Assembly: GCA_016840165.1 (NCBI GenBank)
Contig: JAEOSU010000005.1
Coordinates: forward strand, 1 to 11,958
DNA length: 11,958 nt
DNA from: Promethearchaeota archaeon
GTDB taxonomy: Archaea > Asgardarchaeota > Lokiarchaeia > Sigyniarchaeales > SOKP01
Reading direction: 5' to 3'
Every line of letters begins with the position of its first letter. Position 1 is the stretch's first letter. A model generated the notes under the pieces. It was not told the origin of the DNA, ran no database searches, and saw only the letters and a program-made list of their open reading frames with translations. Shown here in pieces: positions 2,788 to 11,958 of the stretch. A program made the translations under genes and the position numbers.

Positions 2788-3345
2788 ATGTCATATCGGG
2801 GAAAAGTAATTCTTTGTGGTGATCCAGGAGTTGGAAAAACAAGTTTATTAGCTCGATATGTAGATAAGAAATTTAGTGAGGAATATCATCAGACTATTGG
2901 CGCTAATTTTCTTATCAAAGAAATTGACCTGGGCAAAATAATTGACAAATTAAAATTAAAAAACGAAGATTTAAAGGCAGATATTAAGGACAAGGGCTTT
3001 AAACTGTATTTCTGGGATATTGGGGGTCAAACGGATAAACTTTTCGCCAATGAATACTATTTTATTCAAGCTGTCGGCGCTATGATTATTTTTAGTTTAG
3101 GAAACTATGAATCCTTCAAAAATCTTGATTTTTGGATATCAAAACTCAAAGAATTGAGTGGGGATGTTCCTTATATTATTGTTGGAAATAAATCAGACTT
3201 AAAAAGAGAAGTTGATGTTGAGTTTATTAATGAGAAAACCTCGGAATTGAGCGTTGATTATTTAGAGACTTCAGCATTATTGAATAAAAATGTCAATGAA
3301 GCATTTGAACGATTATCAATTCACATTCTAAATAATATTAAGTGA
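2788..3345 (+). CDS. Ras-superfamily (Rab-like) small GTPase
   Basis: G1 GDPGVGKT, G2 YHQTIG, G3 WDIGGQ, G4 GNKSD, G5 ETSAL. No C-terminal Cys prenylation motif. Ends at a TGA stop. Confidence 0.95.
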   Translation: MSYRGKVILCGDPGVGKTSLLARYVDKKFSEEYHQTIGANFLIKEIDLGKIIDKLKLKNEDLKADIKDKGFKLYFWDIGGQTDKLFANEYYFIQAVGAMIIFSLGNYESFKNLDFWISKLKELSGDVPYIIVGNKSDLKREVDVEFINEKTSELSVDYLETSALLNKNVNEAFERLSIHILNNIK

Positions 3346-7150: not shown

Positions 7151-9145
7151 ATGTCTGATACTCAGACCAATGTTAGAATTGGCGTTTATATATGTAGGTG
7201 AGGAGTTAATATCGGTGCAACCGTTGATTGCGATGCGGTAAAAGAAGCTGTAGAATACCTTCCCAATGTGGTGGTAACGCGAACTAATGATTTTACGTGT
7301 AGTGATCCGGGGCAAAATATCATTAAAAATGATATTATCGAATTAGATTTAAACCGAGTGGTTGTTGCAGCATGTACTCCTAAGATTCATGAGCCAACAT
7401 ACCGTGCAGTTTTAACAGAAGCAGGTTTAAGTCCATATTTCTTTCAAATGGTAAATCTACGAGAGCAATGTGCCTTTGTCCATCCTGATAATAAAGAGGC
7501 TGCAACAAAAAAGGCGATACGATTGGTTCGAGCAGGAATCAACAGAGCTCGTGAATTAGAAAGAATCCCCCGTAAGCAAATACCTGTTGAACATGCAGTC
7601 CTCATAGTGGGTGCGGGAATTGCTGGTATGAATGCAGCTTTAGATTTAGCAAATCAAGGCATAGCCGTACATTTAATCGAGAAAGAACCCACCATTGGTG
7701 GAAAAATGGCACAATTAGACCGAATTTATCCTACTGATGACTGTGGGATCTGAGTTCTTGCTCCAATAATGGTGAATACTTCAAAACACCCCAATATTAC
7801 ATTATACACATATAGTGAAGTAGTGGAGTTTAGTGGTATACCAGGTAATTATCATGTTAAAATTAAAAAACATCCACGGTTTGTTGATGAGAAAAAATGT
7901 ACGGGCTGCGGATTATGTACGACTAAATGCCCTATTAATGTACCAAGCGAATTCAATCGTGGGATTGGTGAAAGGGAAGCCATATTTATACCATTCCCTC
8001 AGGCCGTTCCGAAATATGCGGTTATTGATAAGTCTGTTTGTATCGAATGTAAAAACTGCGAACGAATATGCCCTGCTGAAGCAATAAATTTCGAGCAGAA
8101 TGAAGAATTAATCGATATTTCAGTAGGAGCGATTATTGTAGCTACTGGATATGATGAATATCCAATTATTACATCTAATGAATATCATTATGGTCTCTTT
8201 CCCGATGTAATCACTCAGATAGAACTGGAACGATTGCTCAGCCCTATTGGTCCAACTGAAGGCCATGTTTACAGAATATCTGATGGGAAAATTCCAAAAA
8301 AGATAGCAATGATACAGTGTGTAGGCTCAAGAAGTTTACGAGGAAATCAATATTGCTCAGCAGTGTGCTGTAATGTTTCATTAAAGAATGCTCAATTGTT
8401 AAAACAAGAATACCCTAACATGCAAATCACTATTTTTTATATCGATATTCGTACAACAGATAAAGGTAATGAAGAATATTTCAGAAAAATTCGAGAACAA
8501 GGTATTAATTTTATTAAAGGGAAACCAGGTGATATTAAATTAAACAAAGATGGCAGCTTAAGATTATATTTTGATTATTCATTACTTGATGATGTTACAC
8601 ATATGGATTTTGATTTGGTAGTCCTCTCTACGGGAATGGTCCCGTCGAAAGGAACAGAACAAATCACTAAAATCATGGGTTTAAGCACTGGCCCTAATGG
8701 ATTTTTATCAGAAATACATGGCTGTTTAAGTCCCCAAGAAACGAAGAAAACTGGGATCTATATATGCGGTTGTGCATCAGGTCCTAAGAATATTCCCTAT
8801 TCAGTCTCTTCGGCTTTGGCAGCTGCGAGTAAGGCTTCCACTCTTTTATCTCACGATGTTATCAGCCAAGAATTAATTATTGCGGAAGTTGATGAGGAAT
8901 TATGTATGGGCTGTCATCGATGTGAAAAATTATGTGAATATGATGCGATAAAAGTAGATGAAAACGAGATTGCGAGGGTGGATGAGCTTACATGTAAAGG
9001 ATGTGGAGTCTGTGTGACCTCCTGTCCTGCAAGAGCAATCGATCTTAAATACTATCGAGAAAAACAATTTAAAGAAGAAATTAAAGGAATTGGAGCTGTT
9101 TTTCCAAAACCGAGGAAAGAACCGGCTGCAATCAAGGATAATTAA
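7151..9145 (+). CDS. hdrA: Heterodisulfide reductase subunit A (FAD/[4Fe-4S] flavoprotein), selenoprotein with two Sec (U17, U201), 664 aa
   Basis: ATG7151 follows the SD AAGGTGG. One frame reads MSDTQTNVRIGVYICR-UGA(7199-7201)-GVNIG...VVVAACTP...VNLREQC...IVGAGIAG...IYPTDDCGI-UGA(7751-7753)-VLAPIM... and joins the listed ORFs 7268..7753 and 7769..9145. Contains QCVGSR, YCSAVCC and four CxxCxxCxxxC ferredoxin motifs. Confidence 0.95.
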
Positions 9146-9706: not shown

Positions 9707-11200
9707 ATGAGTTTAGAAGGGAAAGTTTCTTGGGATTTATTAAAAAATATAGCAAATACCTTAGATTCATATAGAGTAAGAGTATTAATAGATGCGAAGG
9801 AAGAAATATTAAATACTAACATCTACAATGAAGAGCAGTATTATAATATCCTTTTTAAAATGTTTGAAGATGAAATGAGTAAATACTCTTTATATTATTA
9901 TCTAAACCAAAATGAAACTGGTAATTTAAAACTCTTAAAAGAATTCTCAAAACTCCATTCCCTCAATTTAGCAAAAACATTAAGTCTTTTAGAATTATTA
10001 TCTTCCGAAAATCTAGTAAAAGTGGAGTATCTTTATGATACTGTTAAGGATGAGGCAAATGAAACTGAAAATAAAATCTTCAAGGATCTTGCTATCCAAT
10101 CTACCAAGATCGCTCCCTCTGAAATTAAGTCTATATATGAACCTGTAAAGGTTATTTTTGATTCGAAAAATTGCTCGGGATGCGGATTATGCGTAGGATT
10201 ATGCCCCGTGAATTGTATTGAACTCAATAATGGTATTGGTAGAATTGATGATGATAAATGTATTCGCTGTGGATTATGCTATTATTTTTGTCCTCGAACC
10301 TATCTTCCAGTGAATTTATTAAACATGGTTCAAGAAAATACTTCTGAGATTCCATCGCCCTCTAAATTAGGGTTCTATTCGGAGGCATACTCGGCAAGAA
10401 CAAAAGTTAAAGAAATTTCTGAGCAATGTCAAGATGGAGGGATTTCGAGTACATGCCTTTATTATCTATTTGAACAATCAAAAATTGATTATGCATTAGG
10501 CGCATCAATGAGTAATAATCCATGGCGACCTGAACCAATATTAATGAAAAAAAGAGAAGATGTATTACTAACAACTGGTACTAAATATGTAAATAATCCT
10601 AGTTTAAGTTTGATGAATCAGTTAAATGGAAATACTTGTAGGCTGGCTATTGTAGGGGTACCATGCATGATGCAATCTCTCCTAAAATCAAAAATATATG
10701 ATTTACATATACCTTCCCAAAATAATGTAGTATATCGAATTGGGATTTTTTGTATGGAATCATTTTCCTATGAATCATTTTTAAAAATATGTGATCTACT
10801 CAATGTGAATGTGGATGATGTGAAGAAAACCGATATCAATAAAGGTAAATTCTTTATCTATACCAACAGTGGTAAAGAATTAACTATTCCTATAAAAGAA
10901 ATTACCCATCTTGCACGAGAAGATTGCGAAGTCTGTTATGATTTAACTTCAGAATCTGCAGACATCTCCATTGGTTCCGTCGGCTCTCCATCGGGATGGA
11001 ATACTGTTTTAATACGAACGGAAAAAGGAAAGGAGCTTTATGAAGCGCTTCTTAAAAACGACTTAATTGAATCAAAGAGTTTAAAGGCAGTAAAACCGGG
11101 TTTACCCCTATTAGAAAAAGTTGCGGCTTCTAAAAAAAAGAAATGTTCAACTCATGTTGCGAAAAAAAAGACCGAACATATAAGAACTCCCTCGTATTAA
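9707..11200 (+). CDS. F420 oxidoreductase beta subunit (FrhB/FdhB/FpoF family) fused to a 2x[4Fe-4S] ferredoxin and an extra N-terminal domain
   Basis: Ferredoxin motifs CSGCGLCVGLCP and CIRCGLCYYFCP. FrhB motifs QDGG, GTKY, VGVPC, IGIFCMESF and CEVCYDLTSESADISIGSVG. Start is ATG9707 or ATG9680; the latter reads through a 12-A run. Confidence 0.9.
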   Translation: MSLEGKVSWDLLKNIANTLDSYRVRVLIDAKEEILNTNIYNEEQYYNILFKMFEDEMSKYSLYYYLNQNETGNLKLLKEFSKLHSLNLAKTLSLLELLSSENLVKVEYLYDTVKDEANETENKIFKDLAIQSTKIAPSEIKSIYEPVKVIFDSKNCSGCGLCVGLCPVNCIELNNGIGRIDDDKCIRCGLCYYFCPRTYLPVNLLNMVQENTSEIPSPSKLGFYSEAYSARTKVKEISEQCQDGGISSTCLYYLFEQSKIDYALGASMSNNPWRPEPILMKKREDVLLTTGTKYVNNPSLSLMNQLNGNTCRLAIVGVPCMMQSLLKSKIYDLHIPSQNNVVYRIGIFCMESFSYESFLKICDLLNVNVDDVKKTDINKGKFFIYTNSGKELTIPIKEITHLAREDCEVCYDLTSESADISIGSVGSPSGWNTVLIRTEKGKELYEALLKNDLIESKSLKAVKPGLPLLEKVAASKKKKCSTHVAKKKTEHIRTPSY

Positions 11201-11315
11201 CGCTCTAAATTCTTAACTTTCGCATAATTGGTATCTTATTCTTTTCTAAACCAAAAAGTTAATATTAAATTTTATATTAAAAATCATATCATAAACAAGC
11301 TAATTGATTGTAAAA

Positions 11316-11810
11316 ATGAGTTCTTTAACTCCGATTCGACCAAAAAATTTTCGTGAAAAGGTTTTTTTCCGTAATCTTCGCTCTCAAGTTGATGGAAATG
11401 CTAAAATCGAGCATGGACTAACTCAAATTAGAGGTGTGGGCAGAAGGTTCGCCCAAGCTGTAGTCAAAGTTGCTAAGATAGATCCTAATATCCGTGTTGG
11501 AGTCATTTCCGAAAAAGATATCGCTCGAATCGAAGAAATTATATTAAAACCCGTAGAAAATGGGATTCCCGAGTGGATGGTCAACCGAAAAAAAGATTTA
11601 AGAACCGGAGAAAATCTCCATCTTATCGGAAATACGCTTGAAATCACCGTTAAACGCGATATTGACCGAATGAAACGAATTAAAAGCTATAAAGGAGTCC
11701 GCCATCATCTAGGATTAAAAGTACGAGGACAAAAAACGAAAAGTACGGGTAGACACGGTCTTGTTATCGGAGTTATTCGTAAAAAACTTAAAAAAACAAA
11801 ACAACAATAA
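11316..11810 (+). CDS. rps13: 30S ribosomal protein uS13
   Basis: GLTQIRGVGRRFA, IPEWMVNRKKD..TGE..HL, SYKGVRHHLGLKVRGQKTKSTGR. ATG11316 is preferred over TTG11304. Confidence 0.97.
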   Translation: MSSLTPIRPKNFREKVFFRNLRSQVDGNAKIEHGLTQIRGVGRRFAQAVVKVAKIDPNIRVGVISEKDIARIEEIILKPVENGIPEWMVNRKKDLRTGENLHLIGNTLEITVKRDIDRMKRIKSYKGVRHHLGLKVRGQKTKSTGRHGLVIGVIRKKLKKTKQQ

Positions 11811-11816
11811 GGTGAT
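11809..11816 (+). promoter_or_regulatory. Strong Shine-Dalgarno (AAGGTGAT) for rps4, overlapping the rps13 stop
   Basis: TAAGGTGAT overlaps the rps13 TAA and lies 5 nt before ATC11822. Confidence 0.75.
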
Positions 11817-11821
11817 TAATT

Positions 11822-11958
11822 ATCGGAGATCCACGCCGCTTAAAAAAGAAATTTAAAAAACCAAAAAATCCGTTCGAAAAAGAACGACAAAGGGAAGAAC
11901 TGGAGTTCATAGGAAAATACGGGCTCCGCAACAAACGAGAATTCTGGAAAGCACGAAC
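11822..11958 (+). CDS. rps4: 30S ribosomal protein uS4, 3'-truncated; apparent ATC start
   Basis: ATC-GGA-GAT-CCA... translates as (M)GDPRRLKKKFKKPKNPFEKERQREELEFIGKYGLRNKREFWKAR, the classic archaeal uS4 N-terminus (MGDP, YGLRNKRE). Sits in the canonical rps13-rps4 order. Confidence 0.93.
   Translation, partial: MGDPRRLKKKFKKPKNPFEKERQREELEFIGKYGLRNKREFWKAR

Follow-up and report, generated by a model that had tools for sequence, protein, structure and literature searches.

The window analysed here is an entire contig of 11,958 bp (G000:C105) from the source assembly G000, Promethearchaeota archaeon GCA_016840165.1, a Loki-type Asgard archaeon. G000 is a 3.6-Mb metagenome-assembled genome in 105 contigs, with an estimated contamination of 6.3%. 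The last genes of the window encode ribosomal proteins uS13 (rps13) and uS4 (rps4), in an order that is kept in all 29 genomes of the genus with a locatable uS13 stop. The features of this junction, and of a HIT-family gene taken up further below, are the following.

372-890 (359-890 with the Shine-Dalgarno region), plus strand: HIT-family gene with an ATA start at 372, from PF01230 (E=3.6e-19) and the census of start codons
11316..11810, plus strand: rps13 (uS13) coding sequence, from the open reading frame, PF00416 (E=3.3e-39) and NF003140 (180.9 bits, above cut-off)
11810..11816, plus strand: Shine-Dalgarno AGGTGAT, sharing the last A of the uS13 stop, from 7 nt of complementarity to the 16S 3' end
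11813..11815, plus strand: TGA within the Shine-Dalgarno, in the uS4 frame, closing that frame 3 codons ahead of ATC
11822..11824, plus strand: ATC, inferred start codon of rps4 (uS4), aligned with Met1 of TIGR01018 and NF003139 and conserved
11822..11958, plus strand: 5' part of rps4, 45 complete codons, from the TIGR01018/NF003139 match, cut by the contig end

The uS13 frame opens at ATG 11316, with an in-frame TTG at 11304 as the alternative, and closes with TAA at 11808-11810. The end of this stop is overlaid by AAGGTGAT at 11809-11816, after which the uS4 frame reads TTA (11816), ATT (11819), ATC (11822) and then GGA GAT CCA CGC CGC; translated from TTA this gives L I I G D P R R L K K K F. 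The initial annotation had placed ATC at the Met of the conserved MGDP N-terminus, and the placement is exact. Residues 2-44 of uS4 align to positions 2-44 of both TIGR01018 and NF003139 with an E of about 1e-13, so that ATC falls on model position 1 (Met) and the predicted N-terminus, with ATC read as Met, is (M)GDPRRLKKKFKKPKNPFE. The initial annotation was equally correct in finding no ATG, GTG or TTG between TGA 11813 and ATC, where there are only TTA, ATT and ATC; none occurs either in the 45 codons that run to the contig end at 11958. The match of G000 uS4 scores 51 bits, under the whole-protein cut-off, for the sole reason that the contig ends after 45 codons, and full-length orthologs of the genus score 186-211 bits, above it. 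The remainder of rps4 was not found anywhere in the 105-contig assembly. Contigs of many genus assemblies end within rps4 (the window at 11958, G007:C126, G053:C61, G018:C21, G044:C20, G001:C265, G050:C141 and G051:C199), with breaks at model positions of about 44, 69, 84 and 104-108. These may reflect assembly collapse where co-occurring relatives are highly conserved.

The 16S rRNA gene is absent from the G000 assembly, and the 16S 3' end was taken from 10 genus genomes covering ATC, ATA and ATG species. It reads ...GGATCACCTCCT, with the terminal form GGATCACCTCC(T/C) in the 10 genomes, and is complementary to AGGTGAT over 7 nt. A strong Shine-Dalgarno (SD) at the right spacing had been claimed from the start, and both parts of that claim are borne out: at uS4 the distance is GTGA plus 6 nt, the one most frequent among ATG starts in G000. 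The motif enriched upstream of G000 ATG starts is (G/A)GTGA with G at -9. GGTGA is kept at uS4 in all 19 species with ATC or ATA. The spacing is exactly 6 in 15 of the 16 ATC species; ATG species have spacings of 4-6 and two degenerate SDs, a difference that we read only as a trend.

Other genes of the window include an HdrA-like gene at 7151-9145, which matches NF040770 with E=2.6e-254 on read-through and is split in two by open reading frame finders. It holds in-frame TGA codons at 7199-7201 (motif ICR-U-GVNIG) and 7751-7753 (DCGI-U-VLAP). These positions carry Cys or Sec in HdrA, which makes both TGA probable selenocysteine codons. The gene at 2788-3345 encodes a Ras-family small GTPase (PF00071, E=1.3e-36) and belongs to the 'eukaryotic signature' genes typical of Asgard archaea; it adjoins a CofC-like gene, a seryl-tRNA synthetase gene and an FrhB-like gene.

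Conservation of the uS4 start position

We located uS4 in 41 relatives and then in all 42 genus genomes, and read the start regions; the 5' end was readable in 30 genus genomes. The initial annotation had pointed to rps4 starts across relatives as the comparison to make, and the relatives are not all ATG: the aligned codon is ATC in 16 of the 30 readable species (G000 and 15 of the 29 others), ATA in 3 and ATG in 11. Outgroup genomes from three other families of the same order have ATG in 12 of 12 cases, giving ATG at the same column in 23 other genomes (11 genus members and 12 outgroups). Of 85 genomes in the remaining genera of the family, 83 have a match that begins at model position 1 and thus carry ATG. 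The two exceptions are a partial match and G252 (L068, genus g22, a sister genus), in which uS4 has ATA behind GGTGA+6. A model match that begins at position 2, used here as a proxy for ATH (ATT, ATA or ATC), also catches TTG and GTG, and every case was read from the DNA. Other non-ATG cases read in the phylum sample are TTG (f6, f7, f27) and GTG (f26). The uS4 Met position is ACG in 4 of 6 genomes of the Asgard genus g58 (G176-G179; L055-L057, L060), with a GTG in frame 3 codons upstream. The ACG of g58 and the ATA of G252 are, on their sequences, evidently independent losses of ATG at uS4.

A maximum-likelihood tree was built from about 1 kb of the uS13-uS4 locus itself, with the start region excluded. 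In it the ATC species form a 14-species clade (support 90/92) and the pair G000/G007 (100/99). AU tests do not reject a single origin of ATC (p=0.35) and reject ATC and ATA as one clade (p=4e-6). From these tests and the phylum cases, it follows that uS4 lost ATG at least twice within the genus, with a further loss elsewhere in the phylum sample.

Several features of the ATC species bear on whether this codon begins the protein. The TGA of GGTGA lies in frame 3 codons upstream of ATC in 15 of 16 ATC species, and in three of them a second stop stands right after it (TAA in G005 and G053, TGA in G044). Such tandem stops, present in several species, rule out readthrough of the TGA or a uS13-uS4 fusion. 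The two codons between TGA and ATC are variable (AAA, GAA, AAC, ATT and others), and ATC alone is constant, in 16 of 16. When codons 1-45 are compared among the 16 ATC species, 33 degenerate columns have an invariant amino acid, and 27 of these vary synonymously, which indicates that the N-terminus is translated and under purifying selection. The ATC is one of 6 codon-invariant columns and the only one with a non-preferred codon: Ile codon usage is 0.51 for ATT, 0.31 for ATA and 0.19 for ATC, the rarest. The next in-frame canonical codon in other ATC species is codon 22-23 or 43, and no canonical in-frame codon follows ATC in the 45 codons of G000 or the 106 codons of G007. G007 and the ATA subclade have a GTG within the SD that lies in the uS4 frame, 3 codons upstream, and may be the start in these genomes. 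With the N-terminus conserved, the frame stopped upstream and ATC the sole conserved codon in between, the initial proposal of AUC initiation gains support, and it would seem to be the only reading that fits.

Public annotation of the gene is inconsistent. The closest database homologs of uS4 share 92-98% identity and are 145 aa long, with MAEELEF or LAEELEF at the N-terminus, as in NCBI, JGI and ENA calls of sister genomes (P0007, P0016, P0051, P0058). By their sequences, these records are evidently truncated, having been called from the TTG at codon 23; P0051 and P0058 represent the G021 gene shortened in this way. However, P0040 (NCBI/nr, '30S ribosomal protein S4 [Candidatus Lokiarchaeota archaeon]', 167 aa) is identical to the G048 uS4 over its whole length and has M where the gene has ATC, and so an automated pipeline has accepted ATC at least once. 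Callers limited to ATG, GTG and TTG cut uS4 by 22 residues in the inspected records; where codon 43 is the next canonical one, the loss would reach 43. Truncation of this kind would affect dozens of other proteins encoded by these genomes, distorting families built from Asgard metagenome-assembled genomes.

Probable near-cognate starts across the genome

The HIT-family gene in the same window has the same arrangement as uS4. AAGGTGAT at 359-366 is followed, at +5, by ATA 372, which lies six nt after GGTGA with the TGA of the SD in frame. At the aligned GGTGA+6 position the codon is ATT in ten genus species and ATG in six, and an in-frame GTG lies a few codons upstream in four others; ATT or ATA stands at the ATG position in 11 species. 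The open reading frame finder calls this gene from TTG 450, with a loss of 26 residues.

A census of G000 covered every triplet 0-14 nt past each GTGA that opens an open reading frame of at least 100 codons. Each such frame had to have a stop no more than 8 codons upstream and to lack a canonical start both in that interval and in the following 20 codons. This census replaced a preliminary GGTGA census that had no filter on open reading frames being opened and was swamped by coding GGTGA. At a spacing of 6 nt after GTGA there are 68 ATG, 25 TTG, 7 GTG, 12 ATT and 9 ATA, and at 7 nt there are 45 ATG, 7 TTG, 2 GTG, 3 ATT and 3 ATA. ATH codons at spacing 6 open long frames at 21 of 1412 sites, versus 17 of 12167 for other non-canonical codons (OR 10.8, p=1e-11). 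At spacing 7 they do so at 6 of 1499 sites, versus 6 of 12832 (p=7e-4). The control codons AAA and AAT give 1 and 2 cases at spacing 6 despite being commoner at such sites. ATG and TTG both peak at 6-7 nt, and the ATH peak coincides with that of ATG.

After subtraction of about 3 expected by chance, about 24 of about 180 GTGA-led starts (about 13%) are ATT or ATA. SD-led ATH starts at spacings 6-7 comprise 15 ATT and 12 ATA, with uS4 as the only ATC case; rps4 is thus an outlier even inside this habit. The stronger GGTGA form precedes 18 of 28 ATH starts versus 31 of 113 ATG starts (OR 4.8, p=6e-4), an excess that fits a strong SD offsetting a weak codon.

One candidate from the window itself, at 7208/7211 (AAT ATC after GGTGA), is false: its TGA is one of the in-frame probable selenocysteine codons of the HdrA-like gene, which starts at ATG 7151. 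A separate observation concerns G000:C102 (minus strand, 0-based offset 1513 on the reverse-complemented contig), where an open reading frame opens at ACG six nt past GGTGA. By eye it looks like imidazoleglycerol-phosphate dehydratase (TERKTELARKTKETKV...), and its next canonical codon is 98 codons downstream.

We also looked at two components of the initiation machinery. An initiator-type tRNA-Met gene was located by motif search on G000:C49 at about 11030-11200 (plus strand). It has the anticodon CAT, A1:U72 and a GGG/CCC anticodon stem. Two introns interrupt it, one of 28 nt after position 37 and one of 34 nt within the T-loop; once spliced, it folds into a cloverleaf. Both aragorn (11-13 tRNAs in G000) and the Rfam tRNA model (20) miss it, and their low counts arise because many tRNAs carry introns. 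An altered anticodon does not explain the reading of AUC, as far as the gene sequence goes, a modification of C34 being invisible in DNA. The second component is aIF1 (SUI1), at G000:C49:34438-34653 (minus strand) and upstream (PF01253, E=3.6e-15). Its frame in G000 has no ATG, GTG or TTG anywhere, and after GTGA come ATA AGG AGT ATT, so that aIF1 must likewise begin at a near-cognate codon. In Sulfolobus, aIF1 is reported to discriminate against non-canonical starts (as cited in PMC6237735). A near-cognate start of aIF1 itself is suggestive of relaxed or self-tuned stringency.

Proposed initiation at AUC and its alternatives

We put the probability that translation of uS4 begins at AUC, as a near-cognate start codon, at roughly 85%. 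In the initiation that we propose, the 30S subunit would be anchored by the 7-nt pairing of AGGUGAU to the 16S 3' end, which would set AUC, 6 nt past GGUGA, in the P site. An ordinary initiator Met-tRNA (CAU) would then pair with AUC despite a third-position mismatch, and the protein would begin Met-Gly-Asp-Pro. The strong SD presumably compensates for the weak start codon, and further initiation may come from ribosomes that leave uS13 at its stop, 11 nt upstream. The same scheme would apply across the lineage, with ATT, ATA and, at uS4, ATC used as starts behind strong, precisely spaced SDs. What speaks against an AUC start is the efficiency known from E. coli, which seems low for a stoichiometric ribosomal protein: AUH codons there initiate at well under 1% of AUG, with ATT at about 0.3% (Hecht 2017, as cited in PMC10666635).

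The closest alternative is that AUC works only by termination-reinitiation, in which ribosomes end uS13 at UAA, are caught by the SD and restart, and no uS4 is made otherwise. In its favour, the distance from the uS13 stop to the uS4 start is 2-18 nt (mostly 10-11) in each of the 29 genus genomes in which the stop was located, and short distances allow reinitiation in Haloferax (PMC10666635). Genome-wide, an upstream gene ends within 40 nt of 11 of 28 ATH starts versus 24 of 113 ATG starts, a trend (p=0.09). However, ATG species are equally close, so the spacing is ancestral and not specific to ATC, and for 17 of the 28 ATH starts no gene ends in the 40 nt upstream. Reinitiation in Haloferax is already reduced by 60% at a gap of 13 nt, and where an SD accompanies a gap of +10-11 nt, initiation was taken there to be probably independent (PMC10666635). 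That study treats gaps of +11 to +20 nt as gene-specific and sets them aside; coupled pairs overlap or lie at about -8 to +10 nt, and the uS13-uS4 gap is +11 nt. We find it decidedly unlikely that reinitiation is the whole explanation. Coupling may contribute at uS4, compatible with initiation at AUC as the main explanation, and is not the general basis of ATH starts.

Initiation could instead begin at the GUG inside the SD (11812-11814) and reach the uS4 frame by a +1 frameshift. GTG is a canonical start, and in G007 and the ATA subclade this one lies in frame 3 codons upstream of ATC or ATA. In G000 and 14 other ATC species, however, it is 10 nt upstream and out of frame, and the GTG frame stops after 2 codons in G002 (TGA) and G014 (TAA). 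No conserved slippery site is present and the GTG has no SD of its own, leaving this route very improbable.

A start elsewhere in the uS4 frame fares no better. ATT is the commonest ATH start genome-wide, and the initial annotation had offered AUU at 11819 as a second choice. This did not hold up: the ATT is unique to G000, other species having AAA, GAA or AAC there, and it is merely 3 nt past GGTGA, against a peak at 6-7 nt. A downstream canonical codon would give the shortened uS4 of most public calls, such as those of 145 aa that begin at the TTG of codon 23, but neither G000 (45 codons) nor G007 (106) offers one, and the 22-43 N-terminal residues that would be lost are conserved with synonymous variation. 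We regard both starts together as just as improbable as the frameshift. An error in base calling or assembly that hides a true ATG, raised by the contamination estimate of G000 and by the beginning of rps4 137 nt from a contig end, has next to no chance of being correct: chance or error is excluded because ATC stands in 16 separately assembled species, whose flanking synonymous differences show that the sequences are independent.

Initiation at AUC could be part of something broader. The lineage might select start codons at relaxed stringency, in an SD-guided equivalent of the near-cognate initiation of eukaryotes, with aIF1 itself made from AUU or AUA and the strictly conserved AUC of uS4 acting as a regulatory valve that ties small-subunit production to the level or fidelity of the initiation factor. 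We offer this as speculation and consider it rather unlikely in its full form.

Comparison with known systems

A non-exhaustive literature search found no description of AUC or AUH starts in Asgard archaea. A 2020 review gives archaeal starts as AUG, GUG and UUG (PMC7531240), and ribosome profiling in Haloferax detected near-cognate alternative sites and set them aside (PMC7261190). An essential, stoichiometric protein that would depend on AUC across at least 16 species, together with about 13% of AUH starts, suggests efficient near-cognate initiation, unlike the sub-percent values of E. coli. Asgard archaea are the archaeal sister of eukaryotes and share the aIF1/aIF2 core of start selection, and near-cognate starts are widespread in eukaryotes. 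The lineage may thus offer a natural system for how start-codon stringency is set.

The bacterial infC gene, encoding IF3, is an essential translation gene that starts at AUU, an Ile-family near-cognate codon conserved behind an SD. As in infC and the few AUH starts of NCBI table 11, the near-cognate codon of uS4 is the sole possible start, has an SD ahead and is missed by gene finders restricted to ATG, GTG and TTG. The uS4 codon is AUC and not AUU, however, and the machinery is archaeal (aIF1, aIF1A, aIF2). Whereas the bacterial habit concerns two or three genes, that of G000 extends to about 13% of GTGA-led starts. Autoregulation of the infC type involves a proofreader of the start codon or a fidelity factor; uS4 is a structural 30S protein, for which such control would have no evident foundation. 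The aIF1 gene of G000, likewise devoid of canonical starts, is a separate case.

In mitochondria the mRNAs are leaderless and there is only one tRNA-Met, whose C34 is modified; G000 instead has an SD and a distinct initiator tRNA, whose gene reads plain CAU at the anticodon. The likeness to mitochondria is that AUH codons are routine starts (PMC11775629). The junction also resembles archaeal termination-reinitiation, with ribosomal subunit genes in series, a very short gap and an SD overlapping the upstream stop (PMC10666635). It differs from the coupled pairs of that study in its gap, +11 nt and not an overlap of -4 or -1, and most G000 ATH starts are not so placed. With eukaryotic near-cognate initiation (PMC5666671), uS4 would share a Met-tRNAi on a codon one base off AUG and a stringency set by eIF1/aIF1. 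In contrast to eukaryotes, uS4 would be positioned by an SD at fixed spacing and not by scanning and a Kozak context, and AUC would be the sole start of a main open reading frame and not an alternative start or that of a uORF. Taken together, the AUC of uS4 appears to be a well-conserved case of the known near-cognate AUH starts, in a lineage where such starts are unusually common.
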